DNA of 64,000 bases, taken from the NCBI GenBank assembly GCA_030583785.1, contig CP129475.1:850209-914208 (forward strand), written 5' to 3'. Numbering within the stretch: the stretch's first letter is position 1; the number at the start of each line of letters is the position of its first letter. The notes below the pieces were generated by a model. That model saw only the letters and a list, made by a program, of their open reading frames with translations, had not been told where the DNA came from and ran no database searches. Source of the DNA: Candidatus Dojkabacteria bacterium. GTDB lineage: Bacteria > Patescibacteriota > Dojkabacteria > B142 > OLB20. Shown in pieces: positions 29,501 to 52,392 of the stretch. The translations under genes were made by a program, and so were the position numbers.

Positions 29501-31978
29501 GTTAGAATTGATGCCTGATCCAAAGCGGAATCCGGCACTCCCCGGTGCTGAAACGCTTGCAGGAGCAACACTGGCTGGATCAAATACAGCCACAGGTGAG
29601 TCTGTTGCAATTACGCCTTTTTGTATTCTTAAGTTTGGTAAGGTCAGCTCAACCTGAACAATCTGCGTTGCAGTTTGTGTCGTGCTGTTGGTAGTGCCTT
29701 GTGATGATTGCGCCTGATTTGTTAGGAATAGTCCATCTGCAAATGGTTCATCTGAAGCTGTAACAGTAACATATAACTCAACAATTGATGTCTGTTCGGT
29801 TAAGGTTTGGTGACTTCCATAGTCAAGGGTAAAAGTATTTGCAATGGCATCTGTCGATAAAGTAGGGACAATGCTTGTTAAAGCAAAATAAGTATCTCCT
29901 GCACCAAACTTGATTGTTCCGGGAGGTGGGATTGTAGCATCTTGAGTTGGATCAAAGGTTGTAATTTCTGTGGCCGCAAAAACTGGTAAGGGAAGATAAT
30001 CTGTAATAACAAGGTTTTCTACATCAGAGGTAGGCATTTCAAAGCGTATCCTGTATGTAATGGTGTCTCCAGGACCGATTTTCGGCGTTGAGTAAGAACC
30101 TATAACACCATTGATGGCGCGTATATCTTTTAATGCCAGCACTCCGTTGAGTATGCTCAGTCCGGATGAGCTTGTTTCTGTGACAGCGTTTCCGGTAGAA
30201 GATAGATTGGAATTGTTTAAGACTTCTGCAAATATCGTAACTTGGTTACCCAAAATATCTCCTTGATCGACATTCTCGTTTTGTGGCAGATAATCATCTG
30301 TGAATTCTTGTTGGATCTGTGCTCTAAAGACGAGTGTAGCTGTAGTAGCAGTAGAACCTGTGCAGTCGATTGCTCCTCCAATTAGTGGAACACAGCCACC
30401 GATCAGGTCGCCATCGTTGCTAAATGTCCTTAACAGCAGTTCAGAGCTTATGTCGAATATGATCTCTTGAGTTCCGTCGATTGGAGGTACCGCAGGAGAA
30501 CCGCCCGTGAAATGGTCTACAACTTGAATGTTTGCAGTATCAATGGATCCAGAAGTTGATGAGCCGTGCATATTAACGCTAAGCGTAGGATTAAAAGCGG
30601 GATAGTAGCGTTGTCCATCTGAAAGAATGTCTGTGATTGCAATGTTTTCTAGTGCGAAGAAGTCCGAAACTTGAAAATTTAGAGTGTACTGTACAATATC
30701 TCCAGGGGTGTATCCGGTTGGTCCAACATCTGTAGCCATAGCTACAGATTTTTGTATTACAAGACTGCAGGCTCGAAACTGTGCATCATTAGGCGTTGCA
30801 TCAGAGCTTAAAGGTGATAAGGTATCTCGTGGATCTATGGGTTGCCAGTTGGCGGTTGCCGATATATCGTTGGGGATAGTGACGCATCCTCCGAGAGTCG
30901 GATCAATAATAGAATCTAAGTCTGCATCTAGTTCGGGTACAAAGTAGTTGAAGGTGGCCGAGGCATCGGTTGCAGATGTTGTTCCCGTTAAAGAGGTCCA
31001 AGTTAGTTCCAACAAATTGTCTGGTGGATTCTGCGGAGATGCAGTTGAAGGTTGTTCGCTAATCGTTGCCGTTGGACTCGATGATGCCACAGAAAGGTAG
31101 TTTATTCGATTATCAAGATTGTCACTAAGTACGAAGTCGTCTAGTGTTTGTCCGTCTGCTATGTCTACAGCAAGTGCAAATTGTCTAGGGAAATTTTGGC
31201 CAGTTGCTGTTTCTCCTTCTGGTCCTACATATGATTTACGGATGCTGAAAACAGTTGGGTTTGTATTATAGTTAGAGAAAGTATTTAATATAGTTGGGTC
31301 TGTAGTAAAGTCGTTAGCTGGTGTTGCACCAAACTGAAATCCACCTCTAGCTTGCAGAGTAAGTGGTGTTCCTGCGTCAGCATAATCACTTAGATTTGCA
31401 CTAACTGATACAGTGACATTGGGTTGCCCCGGAACAAAAGAGCCAAAAGGTAACTGTAGTACTACAAATTTATCCCCGGGTGTGCCGCAGACTTGTATTG
31501 CAGTTCCTGTGTTATCGACAGCGTAAGGATGGTTAACACATGGCTCGGTATCTGTAAATTGATAAACATTAGTTGTTAGCGGCGAGCCTAGAAAAGTAGC
31601 GCTCAAAAAGTTAATACCGTCTGCTTCAAATCCTGGATCAAAAGGATATACTCCATCTGTTCCGTTAAAGGGAAAGATCATATCAATAAACGGACCGTAG
31701 CCTTCTGTTGTACCTGAGTTGACAAAAACCATCGAGAAATTAAAGTTTTCACCGATTAAGGTTTCGGTTGGGAAGGTTACATTCAGCACCGGATTTGGTG
31801 TTGCCGAAACTGGCTGAGGCAATACAAATAGGGGAGAAACAATAAGTAGAAGCAGGTTAAAAATCAGCAGTAAATTAAAAGCCGGTTTTTTTACTGCATT
31901 TTTTATAAATGAAAATAAACCTAATCTAGGGTTATGTTTTGGCAGGATATCAATCCTACTATAACTGACTCTATGCAT
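23594..31978 (-). CDS. giant (2794 aa) cell-wall-anchored surface protein with DUF11-type repeat domains and a C-terminal LAXTG sorting signal
   Basis: Signal peptide, many ~100-aa repeats of the conserved-repeat-domain type (e.g. GDTVTFTLVIDHNPASDANAYEVELTDVIPSGMTF), and C-terminal LAVTG + hydrophobic stretch + RRRD tail. Confidence 0.85.
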   Translation of the reverse strand: MHRVSYSRIDILPKHNPRLGLFSFIKNAVKKPAFNLLLIFNLLLLIVSPLFVLPQPVSATPNPVLNVTFPTETLIGENFNFSMVFVNSGTTEGYGPFIDMIFPFNGTDGVYPFDPGFEADGINFLSATFLGSPLTTNVYQFTDTEPCVNHPYAVDNTGTAIQVCGTPGDKFVVLQLPFGSFVPGQPNVTVSVSANLSDYADAGTPLTLQARGGFQFGATPANDFTTDPTILNTFSNYNTNPTVFSIRKSYVGPEGETATGQNFPRQFALAVDIADGQTLDDFVLSDNLDNRINYLSVASSSPTATISEQPSTASPQNPPDNLLELTWTSLTGTTSATDASATFNYFVPELDADLDSIIDPTLGGCVTIPNDISATANWQPIDPRDTLSPLSSDATPNDAQFRACSLVIQKSVAMATDVGPTGYTPGDIVQYTLNFQVSDFFALENIAITDILSDGQRYYPAFNPTLSVNMHGSSTSGSIDTANIQVVDHFTGGSPAVPPIDGTQEIIFDISSELLLRTFSNDGDLIGGCVPLIGGAIDCTGSTATTATLVFRAQIQQEFTDDYLPQNENVDQGDILGNQVTIFAEVLNNSNLSSTGNAVTETSSSGLSILNGVLALKDIRAINGVIGSYSTPKIGPGDTITYRIRFEMPTSDVENLVITDYLPLPVFAATEITTFDPTQDATIPPPGTIKFGAGDTYFALTSIVPTLSTDAIANTFTLDYGSHQTLTEQTSIVELYVTVTASDEPFADGLFLTNQAQSSQGTTNSTTQTATQIVQVELTLPNLRIQKGVIATDSPVAVFDPASVAPASVSAPGSAGFRFGSGINSNNLTTTPIDSNLVGVDAADLVSFAVVIENIGQGINGAYNVAFADTLPSEFIVPSGGLNMTITDGAGNPLAWTPVNVLDTYPLFGSGITLDDSLVGSLSAYHATSGSNIAIITYDLEIIGSIDAEVLIENIASLTSYSSSDMGPNFLAVSLSDPAEVTETKIPEIEKNYVGSNHAGSIDPYVVVGEIIEYEVVLTIPEGVMINTLLTDTLDSGLALVGINSITSSTPDLTTDYPGGFAGVASGIVVTNSGRAIEFPFNTLTNINTNNLVDETITLNYSAVVLNNNEIYRDRQRNNSAVFTYANGSVSDSADNVVIAEPTLRVTKTPSAANADAGDTVTFTLVIDHNPASDANAYEVELTDVIPSGMTFAGNLNHTAGLAPSVGPSESSGTITASWATFPDDGSSSTITFDVTIDGSVTLGSSIINTASARWTSLPGSILTDQSTYASPSTERTGSTSDPGGSENDYVVSGSGTVTILSANPTKLITSTSESSTGVLSSIERVAVGEIIRYRTYIRIAEATAPNLMFRDMLPTGLQFINDGTAMIAFVANDAGISSSTLIPASIGCDGGSNPDLSFVGNEVNVDSIVPECPLPDTAVSSAEASNNDTYGSGTSVYFKFGNVTNDDRDTDFEYIIVEFNALVLNISTNQAATTRDNTFRLMQNGSIVATSTTGNPNRVRVVEPVVTVSKAVTIAPTDAGDALQYTLTVRNQDTSVNGATAFDINVLDLVPAEAVVGSVVVSTPNGYTDNSSGQSVDILLDFLNKGQQATITINTIVDSVIQPQEIINNIASARWSSLPSTNGTTTNPTGSSTPGASGSSTGERNGNDGVGLLNDYVASSSANTTIGSITIDKLEPSVTTYAIGSTVNYEILITMPEGTANNVVVTDYIPNGMRYSSYQIITTAGGNLSADFAGSIPTPVVTGGASSGDDVSLAFSSITTTADNNSNNNSFIIRLSLTVLNELGLQRNSTLANTAGLVFDNPNAAGVLSVTDSVPVVITVIEPILDISKTASSIPPLVQAGSSVEYEIVVTHNASSNADAYEVVIQDPAQTNLTITNVSVAVTGSIPTPSSTFAGNTVLVPATGSFTLPDDGTYLTITVTATVNAGASETITNTAQATWSSVPLPNTNARTNGSGNYDLSETGATGLNDYSVTDSDNMVSTSNPTISKVVGQTSANHTSDATDPIQVTIGETISYFLRIGIGEGTTSTLRLIDNLAANTAYISHSLVTVAADSFGEMALDFNGTVPAPSCSGCVNGSAGANLQFDFSGVVNNVDANGLNDFFGIRIDVVVLDIPLNDGLPLGTTQFSNTSSLQANLPSGQIVNSNTIDFDIVEPNLTIDKEFDTGVDPDQASPFEFADVQITIENNGSSSAFDVDWLDNLNSIHTGVFLYQNDISALCSAGVTISMSVDDSSSPVLTGQIIELPAGESCTVSFSVQLVGTIDQSVYPQVTNQTRIVEFSTLPNTNSNERTVGPVIASDSITVAVVDLEIDKTDGALESDPGDTLVYNLTITNSGLVEATGIIVSEEVPANTTFEDSLSTTGWVCTPDNSAGSTCIFDLSSHLGTPLAENGGNETIQFAVIIDNPVAPLTTSITNTASVTDDGSKGIDPTPTNNTDTDENLMGNVVDLAIEKTTTASSVSFNTDLVFTLNYENLGTTDATGVEISDTVPDNSVFNPTLSSVGWSCLPDNNPGSICTISVGTVPRNTSGSIEFAVTTADYPPVYSEIYNEASITDDGNNGPDIRPEDNSDDTSVPVLYTNVFDPPSALKTFNDAGLPEIEWKMVWINDGNTVALDVRIIDPIPVNTTYVTDSFQCEARGLSTTTLCTFDSLNNQVVWEGNIAPDLGGTDEDDSDNEVVLTFRTTVPPTIETLENHAYVYWDDNLNGDIDDDILAGQEPRYSNDPATGEVDDPTTWIRPTLAVTGSSFLVPSVAAFMILITLAAVNIKNYNLLTIGRRRDLSSISERISFRSIKGF

Positions 31979-39305: not shown

Positions 39306-40511
39306 TTGAAAAGATTGCATGGTTGGGAATTAAAGAATATTCGTATCTATTACCTGCTCACTTTTGTACAGAGTAGTTGGTGGATAATGGGTAACTGGAT
39401 ATTCTTCTGGACCCGTTATATGACTTACGGCACGCTTGGGCTTATTGATGCCTTGGCCTTTGGATTTGGAGTTCTTGTAGAAATACCAACAGGTGCAGTT
39501 GCTGATCTCCTAGGTAAAAGAAGAACGATAATTGCTGCAATGGCTACTGCTACCTTGGGAATTATCCTAATGACTCATACTTGGAATCAATGGGGTATGC
39601 TATTTGGCTTTCTATTGGCGCAACTTGGCTGGGCATTGTATTCAGGTGCAGGGGAAGCCATGGCATACGATACACTTGTCGATCAAAAAAGAGAGTCAGA
39701 ATTTGAAAAAGTCATATCATCAGCATCTTCTGCAGGGTTGATTGTGACGGTTTTAACAATAATAATCGGAGGCTTTTTCTATGCCTTGTACTTTCAACTG
39801 CCACATATTATGTGGTGGATCACTTATGCTCTTGGTCTGATTCTTGCTTTTGGTATAACCGAACCAAATGCTGATACAGAAAAGTTCTCCTGGAAGGGAT
39901 ACTTTAAACAGCTTTCGACCGGTTTTGGTCAACTTCTTTCTCCAAAATTACGAAGATACTTAGTATTCATACTTGGACTAAATGGCGTGTTTATTATTTA
40001 TGATTGGGGACTAGTTAAGCCTGCTATGCTCGAACATTTTGGATATTATGCCAACGAACAGGCAATAGTGTTTGCTGTACTTGGTATTATCGGGGCGGTG
40101 TTTGTCAAAAGTCTGCCCAAAATTCGTAAAATATTTGGTGATATCAAGGGTCTTTATCTACTCAGTATGTTGATAGGTTTTTCTTATCTGATCATGTATT
40201 TCAATCTTGGGTACTATGGATTAATTACTGTGGCGATAATCGATATATTCGGAAGAATGATATATCCTTGGTTGTCCGTGGTTGTTAACAAAGAAATTCC
40301 ATCAAAATATAGGGCAACAACTATCTCTACTAGCACATTGATTAGCAGAATTCCTTATGTGATTGTTGCACTATTGGCTGGAGCCGCAGCAGAAAATGGA
40401 ACACTAAATGAGTTTAGTTTAGGTATTGGAACTGCATTTTTGGCGATGATTGGACTAAGCGTTATTCTCTCTTTTCAGAAACTCTTTGCTAGGATAAACT
40501 CTAAACTATAA
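39306..40511 (+). CDS. MFS transporter
   Basis: 401 aa with 12 TM segments and the loop motif GAVADLLGKRRTI. Confidence 0.75.
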   Translation: MKRLHGWELKNIRIYYLLTFVQSSWWIMGNWIFFWTRYMTYGTLGLIDALAFGFGVLVEIPTGAVADLLGKRRTIIAAMATATLGIILMTHTWNQWGMLFGFLLAQLGWALYSGAGEAMAYDTLVDQKRESEFEKVISSASSAGLIVTVLTIIIGGFFYALYFQLPHIMWWITYALGLILAFGITEPNADTEKFSWKGYFKQLSTGFGQLLSPKLRRYLVFILGLNGVFIIYDWGLVKPAMLEHFGYYANEQAIVFAVLGIIGAVFVKSLPKIRKIFGDIKGLYLLSMLIGFSYLIMYFNLGYYGLITVAIIDIFGRMIYPWLSVVVNKEIPSKYRATTISTSTLISRIPYVIVALLAGAAAENGTLNEFSLGIGTAFLAMIGLSVILSFQKLFARINSKL

Positions 40512-40529
40512 GAATTTATAAATATATCT

Positions 40530-41567
40530 GTGAAAAAGAATAAACAAGATAATAAAGAACAGAAAACTCAGCCCATAGAACGAGAGAAGATCGAAACAAA
40601 CGACGGCGGTGTAGCATTCGTTAGGGGTAATCATCCTAGAAAGAAGGGGTTCTGGCCACAATACGCAAACCTGGGAACTGGTCTTAAAAGCAATGTCGTC
40701 TTAACAGATGTTATTGAGCCAGAATCAAAAGTCGTTAATTACGCAGATAACCTCAAAGATCCAGTTAATACTGATATTTCTAAGGCGGAGGATTTTAATG
40801 ATTCGCACAATCATTATCAGAATCTGCTTTCCGAGGTATGGAACTATAACGATAAAATTAACGGAGTTGCACTTTGGGGCGACAGCAGCGCACTTGTTGA
40901 CAACAGCAAAGTCTGGGGTGGATTTTTGTCCGCTCGATCTTGGCCAGTTGGCTATGGGGAATACACGCCTGAGTCGGTAGCTGAAAAGAATAAAAAATCA
41001 TTTGATGCTCAACTTGTTGGACTTGAAATAGATATTCTCAATGCAGGAGAACCGGCTCCATCGAAGTGGGCAAAAACAGGACTGCAGGTTGTTGGCTTTG
41101 GAAATAAAAACACAACGGCAATCGAGATAAGATCCGAAGATACAGATGTTTATGCAAAAACACAGTCCGAAAAGAGAGGTTCTTTTCATGAAGGCATTGT
41201 TTTCAACAATTGCATGGCAGAAGACGGAATCTACATGAGCTCCCGTAATGCAGGTGGGGCAATTGGTATTGATTTTAGAAATACATATTTTACACATGGA
41301 GCCGTTTCGTTACTCACAGCAGGCAACCAAAGTGGTATCGTTTTTAATAGCGGTAAGTCGGGGCAGATTTATGGGGATAGCAAAGGTAATCTGACACTAG
41401 CCATCGGTGAAAACGGCATCAAGATGGTAGATCTATCTGGAAAAACATTTTTTTATCTTCCTCTAAGAAAACGGCACAGAATTATATACGCTATTTTGGC
41501 AGCATTACTTGCTGTATGGTTTGTAGTTGTGTCTATTGCCACGCTTCTGTTTCTTTTCAAGTCGTAG
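40530..41567 (+). CDS. hypothetical protein with C-terminal TM anchor
   Basis: 345 aa; the Gly/Asn-rich C-terminal half is possibly beta-helical, followed by a TM at the extreme C-terminus. Confidence 0.4.
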   Translation: MKKNKQDNKEQKTQPIEREKIETNDGGVAFVRGNHPRKKGFWPQYANLGTGLKSNVVLTDVIEPESKVVNYADNLKDPVNTDISKAEDFNDSHNHYQNLLSEVWNYNDKINGVALWGDSSALVDNSKVWGGFLSARSWPVGYGEYTPESVAEKNKKSFDAQLVGLEIDILNAGEPAPSKWAKTGLQVVGFGNKNTTAIEIRSEDTDVYAKTQSEKRGSFHEGIVFNNCMAEDGIYMSSRNAGGAIGIDFRNTYFTHGAVSLLTAGNQSGIVFNSGKSGQIYGDSKGNLTLAIGENGIKMVDLSGKTFFYLPLRKRHRIIYAILAALLAVWFVVVSIATLLFLFKS

Positions 41568-41604: not shown

Positions 41605-44600
41605 GTGATACATAAACTTTTCTCATTAGTTAGTTTTCTGCCCGTATTTCTCATCGTCTTTTCTTCATCTGCACAGGCTCTAGTTGCGTCTCCTACAGCT
41701 GGAAACTATGCAAAGGGTGAAGAAATTACAATCTCCTTAACTGCCAATCCGGCAAATGAATATATTAATGCCATTGAATTTAATCTTCTGGCGGAAAATC
41801 TACAGATTTTGGATTATATTCTTCCGGCAGAAAGCGGGAATTGGTTGGTCAGCAAGCCAGGATGTGAAAACGATCAGTTTTATATTGCAGATAAGGTATG
41901 TGTCACACTTGGAAAGCAACAGGCTATTCAACCGGGAGAATCATTAGGGACTTTGCGTGTAATGATTACTGATGATGGCAACGCAAGGTTGCTTACAATC
42001 AATGGAAGCGGTTATTCTGATGGAGAAGCTGTTTATGAACTCGATCAACAGCTTGTTTCTTGGAATGAAGTTGTTTCTGAGTCAAGTACAGGCTTGCCTG
42101 TTGACCTACCTTGGGGATCAATACTTATTGTTGTTTGTATTGGACTAACTGTCGGGGTTCTGTTGTTGCTCCTGCTTCTTAGAAAATCAAAAAGAGCGGT
42201 ATTATCGACCGTTCTAATAGTCGGAGGAGGTCTTTTGCTCGCTGTTGCTGCGATTGTGGTCTTGAATTTTACTCAGTCAACAACTCCAGAACAATCATCG
42301 GCATCGCAAAATTCAAACAGACACAGCTTAAAGGTAATGTTCATTGGTTATAACCCTGTTGAAGGAGACAAGGATATTGCAACCACATACTTTCCGGGTG
42401 CTATGGCTGGGAGAACCGCTGCACAATTTGAAGATGAAATGTTTGAAAAGATTCGCAACGCATATTTAGAATTATCTGAAGGAAGAATTAATTTTTCCTT
42501 AAAAAAGAAGCTAAACATCACAAGTTTTCCGACTTACGATGGGGTTCAAGAGTTCACATTCGATAATTATGCAAGATGTGTCTACGGTACTCCAGCGTTT
42601 CAGCCTGAATTTTGCGATGCATTAAAGTTAAAGTTTGATTATGTAAAATTCGTTCAAGAAAATAATCTTTGTCAAATTGCAAAAGATGAAGGTATCGACG
42701 AAATTTGGATGTTCTCTCCGCCGTATATGCTAGCTTGGGAGAATTTTATGGTCGGTCCTACAGCTGGTTTTCCAGTAAATGGTCCGGGATTTGTTGTGCC
42801 AGGTTGTGACCGTCATATTGTTATAACAAATGGTACTTATGATAGACCTGGTAATCTTATGCATATTATCGGGCATAAAGCAGAAGCGATAATGGGTAGG
42901 CTAGTATCATATTGGAAGGCTGAAGACAAAGAACTACATTGGAATCGCTTCAGCAAGATTGACCTTTATGGAGGAATGACTCCAGATTTTTCAGTTCCTT
43001 ACTGCGGAAACATTCATTATCCCCACAATGGTACTTTTTCTTACGATATTGCAAACAAGACCACAAGACTGTCGGCCTGCAGTGATTGGAAGAATTTCCC
43101 GGAGTATACCGGAAACAATGTGCAGTCAAACTGTGACGATTGGGGCTGCACCGATGACGGTTGGAGTCTGAAATGGTTATCTTCACTACCGCATTCTGTC
43201 GGCGAGGTACTAATGACAGCTCCAAGTGGCGAGAAATTTGTTTTCAAAAAAGACTGGTGGTACTACTTCTTATATCCAGAAAATGTAATCTCTTTCCCTC
43301 AGTATATTCAAGAATGCACAAGTTTCACCTATGGCAAATGGAGTGTCTGTAGCAATAAAACACAGACAAGATCTGTTGTAAGTAGATCACCAGAAAACTG
43401 TTATGGAGAACCAGCAGAACCACTTGTTCAAGAGTGTGCAGATCCGATAGTCGCATGTACGGATTACAAATATAGTGATTGGGGAATATGTATTGATGGA
43501 AAACAAAGCAGAACAGTAGAAGATAGCCTTCCTTCTGGTTGTATTGGCGGAGCAAACCCAGTACTTTCGCAGTCGTGTCAGGTTGCTTGTACTGCGTTTA
43601 CTTATACTGAGTGGAGCGGCTGTAATGAAGAAAGCTTAATCAGCACTCGTCAGCTAGTGTCTTCATTACCAACAGGGTGTGTGGGTGGAACTCCGGAACC
43701 TTTGTCACAGAGTTGTACGATAGCACCAGAGCGATGTACTGAATTCAATTATTCAAACTGGTCGGCTTGTGTTGAAGGTAAACAGACCAGAACTCTAGTG
43801 TCACAATTGCCAGGCGGATGCTCCGGCTCTGCACCTGGTCCATTTGAACAGTCCTGTCAGTCAGTGTGTAGCGAATTCACCTATTCTGATTGGGGAGAAT
43901 GCATAGATGGAAGCCAGAACAGGACTATTCTTTCGTCCCTTCCAAGCGGATGTAGCGGAGGTACTCCTGCAGAATTAACTAGAGCGTGCACACCGGTATG
44001 TTCGAATTTTGTTTATTCCGAATGGAGCGAGTGTGTGAATTCGAACCAAACAAGAACAATCATTTCAGCTCTGCCTCAGAATTGTAGCGGTGGATCACCG
44101 GCTGCTTTAAGTAGATCATGCACTGCAATAATCCAACCAACCCTGATACCTCAACCGGTTGCTTGTACGAGTCATACATATTCACCATGGGGAGCTTGTC
44201 GAGGAGGCAGTTCAACCAGGACTGTAGTGTCTTCTGTACCAGAAGCTTGCGTTGGTGGTGTTGCTCCGGTAACTACGCAATCCTGTACTTCGCCACAAGT
44301 AACCTGTCAGGAATTCTCTTATTCTGCTTGGAGCAACTGCGAAGACGGCAGAAGAGAAAGGATAATTGTGGGTTCTTCTCCTGCAGGATGTATTGGTGGA
44401 ACACCAGCACAGCTTAGTCAGGGTTGTACTTCTGAAGTAACTTGTCAGTCGTTCACCTATTCTGATTGGGGACAATGCAGGAACGGAATACAATATCGAA
44501 ACATTAGTGGATCAACGCCTACTAGTTGTAGCGGTGGAAATCCTCAATTAAGTAGATCTTGTGAGACTCAACCGCTGCCTTCAGTTAATGTGACCCCTGT

Positions 44601-44817
44601 TGTCGCAGGATCAAGTTGTGTTGCAATCGACGGTAACCAAGATGGAAGGATTACATTGATTGAGCTGGCGAGGTTCCTTAGAAACTTTGGTACAAAGTGT
44701 GAGCCGGTAAATGTTCAAGGGTGCGGAAGTATTGATGCAAATGGAGACGGAATTGTCGACGACAAAGATTTAAGGCTTGTTCTTAGTAACTACAACAAGA
44801 ACCAGTGTAGAATTTGA
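41605..44817 (+). CDS. multidomain surface protein: cohesin-like domain - 2 TM - unknown domain - 9x thrombospondin-type-1-like Cys repeats - dockerin
   Basis: Signal peptide, then a cohesin-like beta region (nt ~41677-42010). TM helices at aa 171-221. Nine ~41-aa repeats C-x2-F-x-Y-S-x-W-x2-C-x2-G-x-Q-x-R-T-x2-S-x2-P-x-G-C-x-G-G-x-P-x6-C (nt 43315-44563). The C-terminal dockerin has two Ca loops (DGNQDGRITLIE / DANGDGIVDDKD). Confidence 0.7.
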   Translation: MIHKLFSLVSFLPVFLIVFSSSAQALVASPTAGNYAKGEEITISLTANPANEYINAIEFNLLAENLQILDYILPAESGNWLVSKPGCENDQFYIADKVCVTLGKQQAIQPGESLGTLRVMITDDGNARLLTINGSGYSDGEAVYELDQQLVSWNEVVSESSTGLPVDLPWGSILIVVCIGLTVGVLLLLLLLRKSKRAVLSTVLIVGGGLLLAVAAIVVLNFTQSTTPEQSSASQNSNRHSLKVMFIGYNPVEGDKDIATTYFPGAMAGRTAAQFEDEMFEKIRNAYLELSEGRINFSLKKKLNITSFPTYDGVQEFTFDNYARCVYGTPAFQPEFCDALKLKFDYVKFVQENNLCQIAKDEGIDEIWMFSPPYMLAWENFMVGPTAGFPVNGPGFVVPGCDRHIVITNGTYDRPGNLMHIIGHKAEAIMGRLVSYWKAEDKELHWNRFSKIDLYGGMTPDFSVPYCGNIHYPHNGTFSYDIANKTTRLSACSDWKNFPEYTGNNVQSNCDDWGCTDDGWSLKWLSSLPHSVGEVLMTAPSGEKFVFKKDWWYYFLYPENVISFPQYIQECTSFTYGKWSVCSNKTQTRSVVSRSPENCYGEPAEPLVQECADPIVACTDYKYSDWGICIDGKQSRTVEDSLPSGCIGGANPVLSQSCQVACTAFTYTEWSGCNEESLISTRQLVSSLPTGCVGGTPEPLSQSCTIAPERCTEFNYSNWSACVEGKQTRTLVSQLPGGCSGSAPGPFEQSCQSVCSEFTYSDWGECIDGSQNRTILSSLPSGCSGGTPAELTRACTPVCSNFVYSEWSECVNSNQTRTIISALPQNCSGGSPAALSRSCTAIIQPTLIPQPVACTSHTYSPWGACRGGSSTRTVVSSVPEACVGGVAPVTTQSCTSPQVTCQEFSYSAWSNCEDGRRERIIVGSSPAGCIGGTPAQLSQGCTSEVTCQSFTYSDWGQCRNGIQYRNISGSTPTSCSGGNPQLSRSCETQPLPSVNVTPVVAGSSCVAIDGNQDGRITLIELARFLRNFGTKCEPVNVQGCGSIDANGDGIVDDKDLRLVLSNYNKNQCRI

Positions 44818-45738: not shown

Positions 45739-47367
45739 TCAGCGGAATGAATTCATTATTAGAACGCCATCTTCGCTTGTGCAGGCATAGAGTTGAGTTA
45801 TTCCGTTAACTCTGCGAACTGCGTAGTGCGTATTACTTTCACTTCCGGTCGACGGATCATAGGGAATTATAATGAGTTCTCCACTTTGGGTTAATGGACT
45901 CAAATCAACACATTGGTCATTCGTAATTGCTGAACTTAGACTCAGTGATTTGGCCGTGATTGCTAGTGCATTTATTCTTGGTGAGAAGTTCGAGCTGCCT
46001 GTTTCCATTACGATCTTATATTGGAAATATCTGCCAAAGTATTGCGAATTAAGAACAATAATATTGTTCTGTTCTGTATTGTAGAAAGATCCAAGAGTGC
46101 CATCGGGACCAGAAAATCCAGCGTCAGAGCAATCGCTTTGCTCACAAGCTCTGACTTGCATAAGTAGCTTAGCTTTGCCCGAATTATACCTGCTACTTAT
46201 TTCTGTTCCTGTAAGTGCACGATTGTAGATTGCAACCTCATCAATGTCTCCATTAAAAAATCTATCGCCACTTGTGCGGCTTCCAATCCTAAGGGGAGTA
46301 GTTGAGGACTGTATTGTGCCGGTAAGGGATATTGTATTTTCTAGGTTGCCGTTAACATAAATACGCATCGATGAACCATTATATGTTCCTACCACATGGT
46401 ACCAGATACCTTGTTGTGGGACAGTCGTTCCAAGAACATATCTTCTGTTAACATTTGTTCTTATAGCAAATTCAAATGTACTATTATTGTAGTTATGTTG
46501 AATCTGGTATTGGTTATCAACATTTTTGTTGATTATCTGAGCCCATTGGGCTCCACTTGCAGGATTAATGTTCCATTTTATCCAAGTTTCAATTGTTATC
46601 TCTGTTGTTGGATTTAAGTTTGCTGAATTGCCAATTTCAATATATGAACTTGTTCCGTTAAACCTTCTGGCATTTGCAAATTGACCTAGAACCTGGCTAG
46701 TGTTAACAGAAGTTCCATTATTATTGTTTCCCGAAGTATCAGTAATGGTGCTACCAATATCGTCTAAGTGAAGAAGTAAAAAGTTGCCACTCATATCAAT
46801 TACACCGGCCGCTCCTGTATTAACAGATTGTTGATTGTCTGGAAGAGCAAAATTATACTTGTCATTTGGAGTAATTGTTACAGATTCCCAAGAACTGGGC
46901 TTTCCAGAATCGATGATAGCTGAATCATAGATTCCGTTTCCGATCGTTTTCCCTACGGAGTTAAGTTCAAGCATCGAATTGCTAAGAATATATTCTGTGT
47001 TTGTGTAGCTACCCAAATTGAAGTCAGAAGCCGAGTTGATTACATATTGTTGCTCTGAGCTAGGGTCACCGTTCACTGCAAGTATTGTACATTCAATTGC
47101 GCAACCTGAGTTATTTGTGCCGATAACACGAAGATTATTGTCAATGTCGGGGAAGTCGTTCCCACGGTTGTTGACCATATATTGTTGTAATCCATTTCTT
47201 ATAGAAATAAGGTCGCTAACTCTTTGTTCGTTTCTTGTTTCTAGAAAATGCTTAGCAGGATTAATTGCGAATATTACAATGGAAACTACAATAACTAGCA
47301 ATGCCATAGCTAAGAGAAGATCGAGTAGCGTAAATGCTTTATTTTTTAGTTGTCTAAGAAGCCTCAT
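45739..47367 (-). CDS. type IV pilin-like protein fused to a LamG/concanavalin-like lectin domain
   Basis: N-terminus KNKAFTLLDLLLAMALLVIVVSIVIFAINP. The LamG-like jelly-roll segment (FNGTSSYIEIGNSANLNPTTEITIETWIKW...RIGSRTSGDRFFNGDIDEVAIYNRAL) matches the laminin-G-like motif. Confidence 0.7.
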   Translation of the reverse strand: MRLLRQLKNKAFTLLDLLLAMALLVIVVSIVIFAINPAKHFLETRNEQRVSDLISIRNGLQQYMVNNRGNDFPDIDNNLRVIGTNNSGCAIECTILAVNGDPSSEQQYVINSASDFNLGSYTNTEYILSNSMLELNSVGKTIGNGIYDSAIIDSGKPSSWESVTITPNDKYNFALPDNQQSVNTGAAGVIDMSGNFLLLHLDDIGSTITDTSGNNNNGTSVNTSQVLGQFANARRFNGTSSYIEIGNSANLNPTTEITIETWIKWNINPASGAQWAQIINKNVDNQYQIQHNYNNSTFEFAIRTNVNRRYVLGTTVPQQGIWYHVVGTYNGSSMRIYVNGNLENTISLTGTIQSSTTPLRIGSRTSGDRFFNGDIDEVAIYNRALTGTEISSRYNSGKAKLLMQVRACEQSDCSDAGFSGPDGTLGSFYNTEQNNIIVLNSQYFGRYFQYKIVMETGSSNFSPRINALAITAKSLSLSSAITNDQCVDLSPLTQSGELIIIPYDPSTGSESNTHYAVRRVNGITQLYACTSEDGVLIMNSFR

Positions 47368-47961: not shown

Positions 47962-50900
47962 GTGCCAAATAAGTCACAACAAAAGCTACTTAATAAAGTC
48001 TTCTCGTTTGTTCTCTCCCTTTCAATGATATTACAGCTGGTAAGTCCAGCATTAGTTTTTGCAGAGACTGAAGTCCCTGCATCAGAACCAGTGCAAGAGA
48101 TAGAATCCGTTTCAGAAGAAGTTAATGAAAATGAATCTCCGGTATTTGAATCTGAAACAGACGAAGATATCGACGAAACCCCGACGCCAGAGACATTGTT
48201 GGAACCAACTTTAGAACCAACAATTGAACCTACTATCGAACCGACTCCAAAAGCAAGTGTCGAATATACAGATGTCGACGGAAGACACACAATTTCTGGA
48301 CTAGAAGCCGGTAGAACATATAGATACTCAGGCGATTCGCGGGTTGCAATCACTTTTAACCAGTTAGAAGAAGGAGACCACTCACTTACAATTAACAAGG
48401 TTCGACTTAACCTAGAAGGAGAAACTGTAAACGGATTTGAATTTACATCAACAATGCAGAATGGAGCTTTTTCTTATGAGATGATTCTTCCAAACCCGTA
48501 CGGTAGCAAGGCAAAAGTTAAATTCAGTGAATCGGTTAGTAATCCAGATTTTAGTGTTGTCAACGATTTCTCTACAGAGCAAGGTTTGGTAACAATCAAT
48601 TCAGATCACTTCACAGTTTTCGTAGTAGTTCCAGATGACATTATTGCTAGTAACATAATCAGTTTCTTTCAACAGGGATGGAGATTAACTTCTGCCGGTA
48701 ATGGATCAGTTGGGCTAGCTTCGGTGGCAGATTATGCAGTCCCTGCAAGTTTCGGACCACATAGTATTAGAATGAATAGGGCAGGCGGTTCTGGACTTAA
48801 CCGCTCGTTTTTGGGTTATTATCAATTCGGTAAAACACTAGCAGAACTAGAAGAAGTATCGTGGAATAGATATACACTAAACGGAACCGACACATATCTA
48901 AACATCTTTATAAGAAATGGATTAAGCACAGCAACTGTTGTTTACAATCCTTCTGTCTCAGCAGGAACATGGCAACAAAGCACTTTTAATAATCTTACCT
49001 CAGGAAACCTTAGCATTCGCATCGGTGGATCATCACAGGCAATCTCTTATACAGATCTAATTGCAAATTTCGGTGATTGGAATATTACCAACGAAACAAC
49101 TTGTATAGGTACTGGAATGGCCTGCCTTAACCCATTAAATTACCGTGTAATCGGCGGAATAGTTATAGTTTCGGGTTCTTCAAGCCCAACTGCTGCTCAG
49201 TCGCATTTTGTTGATGGCGTTACTCTCAAATTTGCAGGTGAAGAAGAATCCTTCTTTGACTTTGTAAACGAGATTCCTTATATGGCCACGATTTACGGAA
49301 CTAAACAAGATACAGATACAAACCCTCTTGCCGACTGGCAGATTAATCTATATGACCAAGAATGGAATCAGATTAACTCTGAGACAACAGATGCGGACGG
49401 TTACTATGAATTTTCTGGACTTGCAGAAGGCGCATATTTAGTTTGTGAAGAAAACAAATCCGGATGGACTCAGGTCGAACCAATGCATTCCAGCTCTGCT
49501 GCAAATGCAACTCCGATCATGAATGTGTCAGAAAATTCTACCTCAGAAGCCTTCTTCTGTTGGAATGTTGAGGTTGTAGAAGAAGACGGATCGGAATTTA
49601 GTGTCGATTTTGTCAACCAACAATTAGCTTCGGCAAGATTTGGTGATTTAACAGTTTGTAAAGTTAACGAGAGCGAACAATCTCTACCAGGCTGGCAAAT
49701 TAATCTTAGTAGGGCTTCTGCCCAGTCACTTGCAGGAGAATTTAATGCTCAAAGCGCTTACGGCTCAAACTTCGGGGATTTCCCAGCCGGAATGTACGAG
49801 ATTACTGTTAGTGGCACATTCAATTTTAAATCTTCTGGTGTAAGAACTGCAGATGCAGGTTACAGCAATAGATCAGAAGCACATCTTCCAGAATGGTTAA
49901 GCGGTTTTCATTGGGTTTCTGCTGGTAATTCGCCAAGAGGACTTTCTCTAAGAATCAACGATATCTGCACAGAATCCAGCTGTTTCGCCGCTAATCCTTT
50001 GAGTGGACTTGTTAACTGGGGACCATATAACCCAAGTCATGCATATACAATTTATTACCTTCACTCCGGAGGTGATTTGCGTTTCTCGATAAGAGATGAT
50101 CAATATACCGATAATTCGGCAGGAAACCTTCAGATCAGCATTAAAGGATATGCAGGTTCTGACACAGATTTTGAATCAACTACAGAGGACGACGGCTGTA
50201 CAACTTTCTCCGATTTATTAATTGGGGATTATTATCTCTCAGAAAGTTTGCAGAAACATTGGCAATTTGTTTCTAGATCAGACGAAGGAGACAACGGCGA
50301 TCTATTTACAGTAGAAGAAGGAGAAAACAATGTTACCTTTACAAACAGAGAACCTTTCATAGAGGCTCCAGTACAAACAGGATATAACCAGAATAATGGT
50401 ACGCCTGCAGGCCAAACTCCATCAGAATTCCTTTGTTTTGGAGGTGTTACAAAGATAAACGGAGTATCAATACTATGGACTCATGATGGTGGAGAAAATG
50501 TTAAATACCAAAGACAATACGCAGTAAACGGGGGCAGTTTTTCTGGAAACGAAATATACACTGGACTTAATACAAACTTTAGAAGCTTTGGAGGTGGAGC
50601 CGGAACTCCAGGAATTTACTCTTCTCGGGTTCGAACTTTTGTCGACGATAACACCAATGGAATCCTTGACGAAGATGAGCTTGTGTCCGAATGGAGCAAT
50701 TCTTGTCAAATCAGATATTTAGTCAGGCAGGAGGTTCCTGAACTTACTGATCTCGAACTATGCAAAGAAGATACTTCAGAAAATCGACTTGGGGGTTGGG
50801 AATTTGAGTATAAAAGAAATGGAGTAGTAATCGAAGGTGAAGATTCTGAAGAACTCGTAAGCAACGCTGCAGGTAAGAATGCAGGCAGTTTTCCAGCAGG

Positions 50901-52392
50901 AATATATAAAATCAATGTTAGAGGAACATATCAGTACGGAAACGCAGTTATGGTTGCCGATGCCGGATATTCTTATCGTCCAAGTAGTATTGTGCTTGGG
51001 AACGATTCGTGGGTAGATGGTAATCAGCTTGGTCTAGCCAATCCTGCTTGGGTCGGGGCTCTCAAAGTAAAGATCAATGGCAACGACATCAACTGGGGAA
51101 TCTATAACAGTGATCATGAATACTCTTATTACTTCGAGCATACGGGAGGAGATATTATATTCTCTATCTTTGATAGTGCTTATGGAGATAACCAGAATAT
51201 TGATTTGGTTGTTGAGATTGAAGAAAGTACTGGAACGGTTTATACAAACGAGGACGGATGCACTTCAGTAGAAGGGTTGTTGCCCGGTGCATATATGATC
51301 ACAGAGACAATTCCGATGAACTGGCAATTTGTCTCAAGATCGGACGAGCGCAACAATGGCGATGAATTTATCCTTGATTCCGAAAATAATAGTCTAATTT
51401 TTACTAACGAACAGCAACTAGGCGAGATCAGCGGTTACAAGTTTAACGACCTTAACAATAATGGAATATGGGATGATGACGAACCTGTATTACCTGGTTG
51501 GACAATCGTTCTTAGAGACTCAGGATTCGGACTGGAGCCTGTAGCATTTAGTACGGCCGAAGTTGATAATACAGCTGTTACAAATGAACTTGGTTTCTAT
51601 AGCTTCACAGATCTCGAATTCGGAGAGTACGAAGTCTGTGAAATTCAGCAAGATGGTTGGAGTCAGACCTTACCCACAGATAACGGCTGTTACAATGTCT
51701 TTATTGATTCTGAAGGGCAAGTATACTCAAATCTTAATTTCGGTAACTACCTTCTACCAGTAGACGAAGAAGAAGAGGAGGAAGAAGAGGAAGAAGGCGA
51801 AGGATCTTCTGAAGGCGAAAATGGAAACGAAGAGACCAACCAGAACAACACAGGAACTACAACTACTCAAACAAGGACATTTACAACCACAACCCTAATT
51901 ACTGAATCTGAAACAGAAGCAGAAGAAGACGAGGGAGAAGTTCTAGGAGCACAGACTTGTGAAGAAACAAGTGTTCTTAGTGGTTCTGTCTATAACGACG
52001 AAAACTCGAATAATACTAAAGACGAAGATGAAAGATCTTTTGCTGGAGTAAAGGTAAGCATATATGCTTGGGTAAGAAACGAAGATGGAGCGCTTGAGAG
52101 AGTTCTTGTAAAGCAAGTCACTACAGACGAAAAAGGCGAGTGGGAAGCCCAGCTTTGCGCAGGTAAGTACGAAGTTGAAATTGCAGATAAACTTCCGGAG
52201 GGTTACGAAGTATCCGGCGACTCTGTACTAGAGGTAGATCTAGGAGAAGATGCAGAAGTTAAGGGAGCAGATTTTGTTCTCGAGCAAATCGAAGAGGCAG
52301 GCTTTAGCTTCTGGAATCTGTGTCCCACATTATTATTAATAGGTTTTATTATCTTGTTGCTTTACCTTCTCTTTAGAAGGAAGAGTAGCTAA
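47962..52392 (+). CDS. giant (1476 aa) secreted repeat protein with internal ~230-aa duplication, SdrD-B/CnaB-like modules, poly-Glu linker and C-terminal hydrophobic anchor
   Basis: Signal peptide and (EPTx)n repeats. Duplicated blocks (...WQFVSRSDEGDNGDLFTVEEGENNVTFTN vs ...WQFVSRSDERNNGDEFILDSENNSLIFTN). D-x-N-x-N-G-x-x-D-x-x-E...GV motifs, an E10 stretch, and a terminal TM + RRK. Confidence 0.75.
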   Translation: MPNKSQQKLLNKVFSFVLSLSMILQLVSPALVFAETEVPASEPVQEIESVSEEVNENESPVFESETDEDIDETPTPETLLEPTLEPTIEPTIEPTPKASVEYTDVDGRHTISGLEAGRTYRYSGDSRVAITFNQLEEGDHSLTINKVRLNLEGETVNGFEFTSTMQNGAFSYEMILPNPYGSKAKVKFSESVSNPDFSVVNDFSTEQGLVTINSDHFTVFVVVPDDIIASNIISFFQQGWRLTSAGNGSVGLASVADYAVPASFGPHSIRMNRAGGSGLNRSFLGYYQFGKTLAELEEVSWNRYTLNGTDTYLNIFIRNGLSTATVVYNPSVSAGTWQQSTFNNLTSGNLSIRIGGSSQAISYTDLIANFGDWNITNETTCIGTGMACLNPLNYRVIGGIVIVSGSSSPTAAQSHFVDGVTLKFAGEEESFFDFVNEIPYMATIYGTKQDTDTNPLADWQINLYDQEWNQINSETTDADGYYEFSGLAEGAYLVCEENKSGWTQVEPMHSSSAANATPIMNVSENSTSEAFFCWNVEVVEEDGSEFSVDFVNQQLASARFGDLTVCKVNESEQSLPGWQINLSRASAQSLAGEFNAQSAYGSNFGDFPAGMYEITVSGTFNFKSSGVRTADAGYSNRSEAHLPEWLSGFHWVSAGNSPRGLSLRINDICTESSCFAANPLSGLVNWGPYNPSHAYTIYYLHSGGDLRFSIRDDQYTDNSAGNLQISIKGYAGSDTDFESTTEDDGCTTFSDLLIGDYYLSESLQKHWQFVSRSDEGDNGDLFTVEEGENNVTFTNREPFIEAPVQTGYNQNNGTPAGQTPSEFLCFGGVTKINGVSILWTHDGGENVKYQRQYAVNGGSFSGNEIYTGLNTNFRSFGGGAGTPGIYSSRVRTFVDDNTNGILDEDELVSEWSNSCQIRYLVRQEVPELTDLELCKEDTSENRLGGWEFEYKRNGVVIEGEDSEELVSNAAGKNAGSFPAGIYKINVRGTYQYGNAVMVADAGYSYRPSSIVLGNDSWVDGNQLGLANPAWVGALKVKINGNDINWGIYNSDHEYSYYFEHTGGDIIFSIFDSAYGDNQNIDLVVEIEESTGTVYTNEDGCTSVEGLLPGAYMITETIPMNWQFVSRSDERNNGDEFILDSENNSLIFTNEQQLGEISGYKFNDLNNNGIWDDDEPVLPGWTIVLRDSGFGLEPVAFSTAEVDNTAVTNELGFYSFTDLEFGEYEVCEIQQDGWSQTLPTDNGCYNVFIDSEGQVYSNLNFGNYLLPVDEEEEEEEEEEGEGSSEGENGNEETNQNNTGTTTTQTRTFTTTTLITESETEAEEDEGEVLGAQTCEETSVLSGSVYNDENSNNTKDEDERSFAGVKVSIYAWVRNEDGALERVLVKQVTTDEKGEWEAQLCAGKYEVEIADKLPEGYEVSGDSVLEVDLGEDAEVKGADFVLEQIEEAGFSFWNLCPTLLLIGFIILLLYLLFRRKSS
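48202..48249. repeat. 15-nt tandem repeats (gaaccaac-w-w-t-y-ga) encoding EPTLEPTIEPTIEPT
   Basis: Read directly from the sequence. Confidence 0.8.
51764..51805. repeat. GAA/GAG-rich low-complexity tract encoding poly-Glu linker
   Basis: The tract gacgaagaagaagaggaggaagaagaggaagaaggcgaagga is read directly from the sequence. Confidence 0.8.

Follow-up and report, generated by a model that had tools for sequence, protein, structure and literature searches.

A window of 64,000 nucleotides (64 kb) from the genome of a Candidatus Dojkabacteria bacterium (GenBank contig CP129475.1, positions 850,209 to 914,208 of the forward strand) was analysed, and all coordinates below are those of this window. 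The subject is a gene at 41605..44817 on the plus strand, which starts with GTG and, stop codon included, encodes a protein of 1070 amino acids (aa). From the N-terminus, the product consists of a signal-peptide-like leader, a domain with a predicted cohesin fold (N-domain), a transmembrane hairpin, a conserved central domain, nine four-Cys repeats and a dockerin-like module. All of these features were mapped on the plus strand. Candidatus Dojkabacteria (WS6) are a lineage within the Candidate Phyla Radiation (CPR; Patescibacteria) with tiny genomes. GC content is uniform across the window (35–43%).

Public records of the identical sequence, entered as 'hypothetical protein' or 'EF-hand domain-containing protein', are KXK09363.1, MBW7954000.1 and WKZ27718.1, from Candidatus Dojkabacteria / candidate division WS6. 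The identical protein was found on 8 contigs, the longest of 1.17 Mb, and two variants of ~98% identity on 1 and 10 further contigs. Such recurrence shows that the open reading frame (ORF) is no assembly artefact. An assembly or frameshift artefact behind the fusion was ruled out as well, since the ORF is present in three NCBI records and many contigs and the hairpin architecture recurs in 11 other proteins. The ORF and its length were recovered as given in the initial annotation of this DNA, together with the features listed there.

Profile searches with the complete protein were largely silent. NCBIfam gave no match, and Pfam gave sub-threshold EF-hand and Dockerin_1 matches plus noise from the transmembrane segments and nothing else. 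Pfam Cohesin and TSP_1 did not match the whole protein even at E ≤ 10. In a phmmer search against PDB sequences, the C-terminal module was the only part of the protein that was matched. A homologue search with the whole protein was swamped by repeat and low-complexity words and returned just a 98% identical variant.

Cohesin-fold domain and dockerin-like module

The signal-peptide-like N-terminus (aa 1–24, MIHKLFSLVSFLPVFLIVFSSSAQA; 41605..41676) was assigned by hydropathy, and 43 family members have a hydrophobic leader at the same position. It is followed by the N-domain (aa 25 to ~157; 41677..42075), for which a word-indexed search returned no relatives. An exhaustive HMMER search yielded 90 family representatives at E ≤ 1e-3, a family without a Pfam model. 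The AlphaFold2 (AF2) model, computed from an alignment of 43 sequences, is all-beta (predicted local distance difference test, pLDDT, 93.4; predicted template modelling score, pTM, 0.85). With this model, Foldseek against the PDB returned cohesins at all of ranks 1–15 (E 3.5e-5 to 4.5e-4, template modelling score, TM-score, 0.53–0.68), so that the predicted fold is cohesin-like. The best match was a non-cellulosomal one from Archaeoglobus fulgidus (2xdh; E 3.5e-5, TM-score 0.64/0.67). OlpA, CipA and type I cohesins of Clostridium acetobutylicum were also in the top 15, in which types I–III are represented. Of the Ruminococcus flavefaciens cohesins, ScaB (5m2s) was matched with TM-scores of 0.66/0.68 and ScaE (2zf9) with somewhat lower ones of 0.63–0.65. 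A cohesin was defined as a nine-stranded flattened beta-sandwich (jelly-roll) of ~140 aa, and the model agrees with this definition at the level of the fold. The N-domain family profile matched no cohesin chain among PDB sequences. Judged from the model, the N-domain is a divergent cohesin-fold domain that falls outside the cohesin family at the sequence level. The cohesin-like N-region proposed in the initial annotation accordingly stands as a fold, and not as a similarity to Pfam Cohesin.

A Cys pair of the N-domain, C87 and C99, is conserved. A typical relative has ~200 aa, in which a leader precedes the domain and its two invariant Cys; an LPxT[GAS]-like motif, a transmembrane segment and a basic tail come after it. 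LPxT[GASN] is present in 25 of 58 short members, and three family members match Pfam Gram_pos_anchor. Alignment with the short members placed a degenerate counterpart of this sorting-like motif, LPVDLPWG, at aa 164–171 (42094..42117). By hydropathy, the motif is followed by the transmembrane hairpin (42118..42264), which is built from TM1 (aa 172–192), the basic loop RKSKR (aa 193–197) and TM2 (aa 198–220). Two adjacent transmembrane helices had been placed at aa 171–221; both are present, with the boundaries now set at aa 172–220. An LPXTG-type C-terminal anchor is not formed, as LPVDLPWG, TM1 and RKSKR are in place but the chain runs on. A short Ser/Gln-rich linker separates TM2 from the central domain.

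The dockerin-like or EF-hand-pair module at the C-terminus (aa 1005–1068; 44617..44808) was assigned from its sequence and a family profile. It has two 12-residue Ca loops, DGNQDGRITLIE followed by LARFLRNFG and DANGDGIVDDKD followed by LRLVLSNYN, with a helix-like segment after each loop. Both loops are kept in 15 family modules and are flanked by four family-invariant Cys (1005, 1032, 1040 and 1068). Asp occupies most loop-12 positions across these 15 modules; in the present protein, loop 1 has an EF-hand-like Glu at its end. The duplicated segment of dockerins (two loop-helix segments of ~22 residues, ~60–70 aa in total) is present. The loop flanks are rich in Pro, Gly and Cys (PVVAGSSC, TKCEPVNVQGCGS), which, going by the sequence, argues against entering helices before the Ca loops. 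In phmmer searches against the PDB, the best match of the module was a scaffoldin dockerin (4u3s_B, E 6.5e-4), with polcalcin and calmodulin next. The module family profile matched EF-hand proteins (2.8e-8) and the dockerins 2y3n_B (9.6e-6) and 4fl4_A (2.9e-4). Because both classes are matched about equally, the profile does not separate a dockerin from an EF-hand pair. Pfam Dockerin_1 is matched by six members of the N-domain family. The module is described here as a Cys-stapled, two-loop dockerin-like module and is predicted to bind Ca.

Fusion and gene adjacency couple the two module types. The four-Cys dockerin-like module is carried by 22 of the 80 members of the N-domain family, among them each of the 18 that exceed 320 aa, and one member (P0071) consists of an N-domain and a dockerin-like module and nothing more. 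Eleven members share the plan of the protein described here: leader, N-domain, transmembrane segment, K/R loop, transmembrane segment, 'NQ..S.A' linker, variable payload and module. The order transmembrane segment, K/R loop, transmembrane segment and 'NQ..S.A' linker is found in all long members. For adjacency, five loci of short N-domain genes were inspected (L176, L178, L179, L180 and L181). In four of them (L176, L178, L179 and L181) the short gene lies directly beside a same-strand gene with a dockerin-like module; at L180 it does not. At L176 (6001-7621 of a Logan contig, SRR23005869), the gene of a 209-aa cohesin-fold anchor (P0015) and that of a 328-aa trypsin-family protein lie on the same strand in this order, 5 nt apart. 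The latter has an N-terminal transmembrane segment, the same linker as the fused members and a C-terminal four-Cys dockerin-like module (hidden Markov model, HMM, E 7e-17), and the pair is a split form of the fused architecture. At L178 (2460-5654), two dockerin-like-module genes (420 and 183 aa) and then two genes of short cohesin-fold anchors (189 and 217 aa) lie on one strand, which looks like a small dedicated locus. Fusion and adjacency together point to a functional, and probably physical, link between the two module types. The fusion in 22 of 80 members and the adjacency in four of five loci are also the basis on which the N-domain would be expected to bind a dockerin in a Ca-dependent manner. 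The partner-docking scaffold suggested in the initial annotation gains support from the same two observations.

The hairpin is interpreted as a scar of gene fusion. Short N-domain members end in a transmembrane segment and a basic tail, and central-domain homologues begin with a single transmembrane segment. Fusion of two such ancestors explains the two-helix hairpin, in which the C-terminal anchor of an anchor gene would have come to lie beside the N-terminal anchor of a cargo gene.

Further combinations were seen in relatives. Two N-domain family members (P0027 and P0056) combine the cohesin-fold domain and the dockerin-like module with Kazal-type protease-inhibitor domains, and Kazal_1 is matched by three members (best E 3e-17). 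Taken with the trypsin-family cargo, these fusions suggest that the display system may carry proteases and protease inhibitors alike. On the contig of one central-domain homologue (P0009), a 291-aa protein with canonical Pfam Cohesin and Dockerin_1 is encoded (L175:10702-12785, minus strand). It adjoins a protein with cupredoxin and Dockerin_1, and the dockerin-tagged central-domain homologue is located a few kb away. Classical and divergent cohesin/dockerin modules thus coexist on that contig.

Central domain, repeats and neighbouring genes

The central conserved domain (aa 240–570; 42322..43314) is an alpha/beta domain with 8 Cys, delimited by homologues, an AF2 model and Foldseek. Its homologues, 11 in databases and 205 metagenomic, extend down to ~24% identity. 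A model of the domain together with repeats 1–2 had a pLDDT of 91.1 and a pTM of 0.79. With the central-domain model, Foldseek against the PDB returned metzincin-type metalloprotease catalytic domains at all of the top 50 ranks (E 4e-4 to 2e-2), including CpaA, ADAM17/TACE, ADAM33, ADAMTS-1/-5, snake-venom reprolysins, InhA2 and PAPP-A. The modelled order is beta1, a long alphaA, beta2, an insert, beta3, beta4 and beta5, and then a 20-residue helix with H420 and H424 at i/i+4. The zincin topology is compatible with this order and with two His four residues apart, as in HExxH. The ~330-aa domain, which is probably the functional payload, had been called unknown; it still lacks a match to any sequence family, and it is now modelled confidently with weak metzincin-type fold matches.

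A putative metal site is indicated by conservation in 86 members. Directly after strand beta5 of the model, the helix motif H420-I-I-G-H424-K-A-E427 (42862..42885) has the family form [H 82% / E 16%]-x-x-G-H-R-x-E, with the positions of H424 and E427 at 100%. A loop, C467-G-N-I-H471-Y-P-H-N475 (43003..43029), follows 44 residues after the helix motif with the family form G-N-x-H-[FY]-P-x-N. Conservation is 100% for its G, H and final N and 96% for its first N. Y480 is also 100% conserved. H471 may serve as the third metal ligand. Matches between the CGNxH loop and cytochrome c3 among PDB sequences were put down to chance and rejected, because the loop reads CxxxH and not the haem motif CxxCH. 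On the strength of the model, the central domain is classed as zincin-like with a non-canonical putative metal site. That it is a hydrolase is a tentative prediction, given close to even odds.

Most members of the central-domain family lack the repeats, and several carry dockerins of various types; the four-Cys dockerin-like module is found on 5 of 82 central-domain ORFs. One homologue of 559 aa (P0011) has a prepilin-type N-terminal methylation motif (Pfam N_methyl, E 2e-4; GFTLTEILIIIALL), which suggests that another organism displays this domain on a filament resembling a type IV pilus. The varied dockerins and the pilin-like N-terminus fit a cargo that is displayed in different ways.

The repeat array (aa 571–991; 43315..44577) was delimited by a repeat HMM, Pfam matches of relatives, hhalign and the AF2 model. 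Its repeats are 44–55 aa long and start at aa 571, 618, 662, 711, 755, 799, 854, 901 and 947. Positions C1, Y6, W9, C12, R19, C29, G31 and C41 are invariant in all of them. An HMM built from repeats of other genomes matched the protein nine times (per-repeat E 1e-14 to 1e-20); together with the invariant positions, this bears out the count of exactly nine made earlier. A degenerate DNA pattern for the repeat core had 4 matches in the window against 0.00 expected (100 shuffles). No DNA-level tandem repeat was found in the array, from which it follows that the repeats are old and conserved only as protein. A recent tandem duplication was rejected for the same reason.

In a collection of species-representative genomes, the DNA pattern was found in 94 stretches against ~2 estimated by chance, and these yield 96 proteins with 273 repeat instances. 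The taxa are mainly Patescibacteria and DPANN archaea, with Nitrospirota and some proteobacterial metagenome-assembled genomes (MAGs) in addition. Tandem arrays occur in the Nitrospirota MAGs L017, L007, L029, L048 and L050. In a Saccharibacteria MAG (L067:3542-7309, minus strand), six such repeats lie C-terminal to a clan-A glycoside hydrolase (GH10/GH39-like matches) and PG_binding_1 domains. In the Patescibacteria proteins L068, L076 and L040, the repeats follow Big_13 and Big_6 Ig-like domains.

About 46 repeat pairs of relatives were searched one by one against Pfam at E ≤ 0.1, and PTN_MK_C was matched by 17, TSP_1 by 12 (best 3.7e-5) and TSP1_spondin by 3. For PTN_MK_C (PF01091, cutoff 25.3 bits), the Nitrospirota sequence L017 passed with 28.5 bits, and P0014 and L029 scored 23.7 and 21.7. 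The repeats of the 1070-aa protein itself matched no Pfam model, including PTN_MK_C and, at E ≤ 10, TSP_1 (PF00090). A 64-sequence repeat profile gave only two distinct and weak matches among 177,635 PDB sequences, the midkines 1mkc_A (E 0.095) and 2lut_A (E 0.3). Both are matches to midkine C-domains and are full-length, with all four Cys aligned; a smaller profile of 11 sequences gave no PDB match. By hhalign, the 64 repeats were compared with seven PDB-verified thrombospondin type-1 repeats (TSRs), with a probability of 50.6% (P 1.6e-4, 37 columns); with 11 repeats it was only 2%. In the AF2 model each repeat has three beta-strands (pLDDT 70–91, repeats 1–2 as modelled with the central domain).

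When this model was searched with Foldseek against viral structures (BFVD), the top match was A0A6J5N7M8 of an uncultured Caudovirales, annotated 'Thrombospondin type-1 (TSP1) repeat' (E 7.2e-5, probability 1.0, 28% identity). The alignment covers 100 columns, a length that fits two repeats, and the aligned query residues were not reported. The proteins A0A6H1QVH2 and A0A6H1QVU4 of Ostreococcus mediterraneus virus 2, annotated as TSP1-repeat proteins, were also among the best viral matches. These structural matches indicate that the repeat family extends to phages and algal viruses.

The six Cys in three disulfides, WxxWxxW and RxRxR of TSRs are absent; the repeats have four Cys, YSxW, one invariant Trp and one invariant Arg. 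The array is net acidic (23 K+R vs 33 D+E) with 25% S+T. A midkine C-domain has 9 K+R vs 3 D+E in 43 aa, and its basic heparin-binding surface is not found in the repeats. Where PMC8955691 cites Kilpelainen et al. 2000, pleiotrophin/midkine domains are described as homologous to the TSR. From profiles and model, the repeats are classed as a remote TSR/midkine-like family. The TSR likeness noted earlier thus stands as a remote one, based on the Pfam matches of relatives, hhalign, midkine and viral TSP1 proteins, and without a TSP_1 match in this protein. The array is read as a rigid, possibly glycosylated stalk or spacer with a possible adhesive function and not as a heparin binder.

Repeat number and variability, proposed for comparison across strains, were scored in the protein and its two variants (P0001 and P0003). 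Nine repeats are present in all three. Relative to the window protein, the variants carry substitutions at 5–7% of the cohesin-fold domain and 3.6–4.5% of the central domain. The repeats (0.2–0.9%) and the dockerin-like module (0–1.4%) are nearly invariant. This uneven variation could reflect recombination or diversifying selection on the two globular domains.

Upstream, a 345-aa ORF (40530-41567, plus strand) ends 37 nt before the gene. It has a Lys-rich N-terminus, one C-terminal transmembrane segment and no significant Pfam match, and it comes after a gene for a major facilitator superfamily transporter (39306-40511). The 345-aa ORF may be co-transcribed with the gene of the 1070-aa protein. 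Large surface proteins are encoded elsewhere in the window: one of 2794 aa (23594-31978, minus strand) with five DUF11 repeats, a Cna-B-like pilin backbone domain and a bMG10 match, one of 1476 aa (47962-52392, plus strand) with SdrD_B, SpaA and CarboxypepD_reg repeats, and a Laminin_G_3 protein of 542 aa (45739-47367, minus strand). None of the three contains the cohesin-fold, dockerin-like, repeat or central modules.

Proposed surface display and alternative explanations

The protein is best explained as a fused anchor-plus-cargo surface display protein with a cellulosome-style, non-cellulolytic cohesin-dockerin-like pairing, with a probability of about 60%. What is shown is how the protein is built, which folds it resembles, how its families are distributed, and that the modules are fused or adjacent; from this we infer the topology, binding, Ca dependence, catalysis and role as follows. 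The ancestral state would have been an anchor gene (signal peptide, cohesin-fold domain, sorting-like motif, transmembrane segment and basic tail) beside a cargo gene (transmembrane segment, enzyme and dockerin-like module). After cleavage of the signal peptide, both large parts would lie outside the cell, held by the two-helix hairpin. The extracellular location of both ends, as proposed earlier, is consistent with the signal peptide, the two transmembrane segments and the basic RKSKR loop, and the even Cys count in each domain was counted in its favour. The membrane-proximal part would be the divergent cohesin-fold domain. The distal cargo would start with the disulfide-rich metzincin-like domain, which may be a metallohydrolase of non-canonical type (probably a peptidase) or may have evolved from one into a binding domain. 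It would continue as a stalk of ~400 residues made of the nine TSR/midkine-like repeats and be tipped by the Cys-stapled, Ca-type dockerin-like module. This tip may bind cohesin-fold domains in a Ca-dependent manner, be it those of neighbouring copies, of free-standing anchors or of the protein itself, and the protein's cohesin-fold domain may likewise pick up further proteins that carry a dockerin tag. The outcome would be a display layer for hydrolases and adhesins, cellulosome-style but non-cellulolytic.

Several results weigh against this display reading. Pfam Cohesin (PF00963) did not match the isolated N-domain at E ≤ 10 and matched 0 of 69 N-domain family members, and the identity of the N-domain to the matched cohesins is just 8–15%. 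Other beta-sandwiches, the CLIPPER domain and YcnI, appear from rank 16 with E of 6e-4 to 3e-3, close below the cohesins. At the other end, Dockerin_1 (PF00404) reached 13.7 bits with the whole protein and 20.6 with the isolated C-terminal 74 aa, below the cutoff of 22.9. The same 74 aa passed EF-hand_5 with 31.5 bits (cutoff 25.9), and in the PDB search with the module profile EF-hand proteins scored as well as or better than dockerins. The earlier description of a 'textbook' dockerin was therefore overstated. No N-domain was found on 82 central-domain ORFs, which makes this particular fusion rare. Partners close to the gene were sought with profiles in vain, as the 64-kb window contains no other N-domain or dockerin-like gene.

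An alternative is a plain membrane-anchored adhesin or enzyme without pairing, made of a generic beta-sandwich (Ig-like, CLIPPER-like or ligand-binding) and an EF-hand pair that stabilises the protein with Ca, which would occur together only because both commonly decorate CPR surface proteins. The unmet Pfam thresholds, the low identity, the CLIPPER and YcnI matches and the best profile score on EF-hand proteins favour it. We nevertheless regard it as unlikely in view of the specificity of the association. A single type of Cys-stapled module closes each of the 18 long N-domain proteins, four of five short genes directly adjoin a gene that encodes it, the arrangement exists in a fused and a split version, and the first 15 fold ranks are all cohesins. 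According to the initial annotation, missing Cohesin and TSP_1 profile similarity would have left the dockerin as the only supported module; the similarity is indeed missing from this protein in Pfam, and the support for these modules comes only from structure prediction and family-level profiles. A sortase-like cut at LPVDLPWG, with the cohesin-fold domain joined to the cell wall and the rest left as N-terminally anchored cargo, would recreate the two-gene system post-translationally. The short family members have LPxT[GASN], a transmembrane segment and a basic tail at the aligned position, three members match Gram_pos_anchor and one long member (P0048) has LPVSG. The motif here is without Thr and Gly (LPVDL), and most long members have degenerate remnants only, e.g. 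SYPLS, SFAVS and SFPDD. No sortase turned up among the window ORFs scanned, although no search was aimed at sortases. Such processing is considered very improbable.

The display reading leaves room for two views of its cargo. The central domain could be no hydrolase at all, but a dead zincin-derived or an unrelated alpha/beta binding domain, and the protein purely an adhesin or spacer. HExxH and HExxHxxGxxH are absent, and the position of the catalytic Glu at i+1 is N/S/D/I in the 86 members. Pfam, NCBIfam and PDB-sequence profile searches with the domain matched no family and no protease, so that a sequence link to any enzyme family is missing. The fold match is weak, with query-normalised TM-scores of 0.17–0.27, target-normalised ones mostly of 0.3–0.4, hence below 0.5, and root-mean-square deviations mostly of 7–9 Å. 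These points also count against an enzymatic cargo as pictured above. They are opposed by the complete conservation of H424, E427, H471, N475 and Y480 in 86 diverse members (identity down to ~24%), a pattern usual for an active or metal site, by the alternation of His and Glu, both possible metal ligands, at position 420, and by the trypsin-family protease that is the sister cargo in the split system. A non-catalytic domain thus appears somewhat unlikely. Doubtful in a comparable degree is the far wider proposal that CPR bacteria have a cohesin-dockerin system of their own, in which a disulfide-bonded cohesin-fold anchor and a four-Cys tag display trypsin-like, metzincin-like, Kazal and Cys-rich cargo on epibiotic cells. 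Both the anchor and the tag would come from sequence families that present domain libraries do not recognise as cohesin or dockerin. The proposal would include the four-Cys repeat of CPR, DPANN, Nitrospirota and phages as a true prokaryotic branch of the TSR/midkine superfamily and make the protein a bacterial ADAMTS analogue.

How CPR/Patescibacteria build their surfaces and attach to or feed on hosts is little understood, and for most of their large surface proteins the annotation says no more than 'hypothetical'. If the display reading is right, it provides a testable assembly rule for CPR surface proteins, by which a cohesin-fold anchor captures Cys-stapled, dockerin-tagged cargo. The scale of the rule would be set by 90 anchor-family representatives, with the tag at the end of every long member. 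Three unannotated domain families would be there to model and name. Repeats of the TSR/midkine-like kind, commonly seen as a eukaryotic feature, would prove widespread among archaea, phages and bacteria of ultra-small size. The engineering of protein display would also gain a new orthogonal pair of the cohesin-dockerin type.

Comparison with known systems

The combination of modules had been called unexpected outside cellulosome-producing Firmicutes. This view is outdated, since the best fold match is from A. fulgidus and a canonical Cohesin and Dockerin_1 protein is encoded on the contig of a relative. In A. fulgidus proteins, cohesin-type and dockerin-type modules occur in one polypeptide, as they do here. 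According to the statement in PMC10066038 for which Peer et al. 2009 is cited, described examples of non-cellulosomal cohesin/dockerin modules come from all three domains of life. A system of this kind is therefore already known. New here are the divergent families, the Cys-stapled tag, the evidence from fused and split forms in CPR, the zincin-like cargo and how widely TSR/midkine-like repeats occur in CPR, DPANN and phages; in the literature searched, no description of these features was found.

Like the A. fulgidus cohesin (2xdh) and R. flavefaciens ScaE (2zf9), the N-domain is predicted to be a beta-sandwich, and as with ScaE there are free-standing relatives of ~200 aa with an LPxTG-like anchor. 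In common with non-cellulosomal cohesin-dockerin proteins, no link to cellulose degradation is seen. Unlike 2xdh/ScaE-type cohesins, the family has no Pfam Cohesin signal and has a conserved putative disulfide. The system as a whole, with its predicted binding, differs from theirs by four invariant Cys in the dockerin-like partner and anchoring through a transmembrane hairpin. The module shares with type I dockerins (PF00404) and EF-hand pairs two 12-residue Ca loops with helix-like segments, a size of ~65 aa and a position at the extreme C-terminus of a secreted protein. Further likenesses to type I dockerins are Asp at loop position 12 in the family consensus and the matches to solved dockerins, whereas the sub-cutoff Dockerin_1 score, the Glu that ends loop 1 and the four Cys flanking the loops set it apart.

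For the repeats, Y-S-x-W-x2-C ... G-x-Q-x-R-T aligns with W-S-x-W-S-x-C ... G-x-x-x-R-x-R of the TSR (PF00090), and the four Cys align with those of the midkine/pleiotrophin C-domain (PF01091). In contrast to the TSR with ~55 aa and 6 Cys, the repeats have a core of 41–44 aa with 4 Cys and a prokaryotic and phage distribution. They are acidic and Ser/Thr-rich, whereas the midkine domain is basic and binds heparin. With the reprolysin/ADAM/ADAMTS metzincins, the model of the central domain shares the order of strands and helices ending in a long helix and two His four apart. It differs by [H/E]xxGHRxE and a distant GNxH[FY]PxN loop in place of HExxHxxGxxH, and neither a disintegrin-like domain nor sequence similarity is present. 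The succession of a metzincin-like domain and TSR-like repeats recalls ADAMTS proteins, as an analogy of architecture only.

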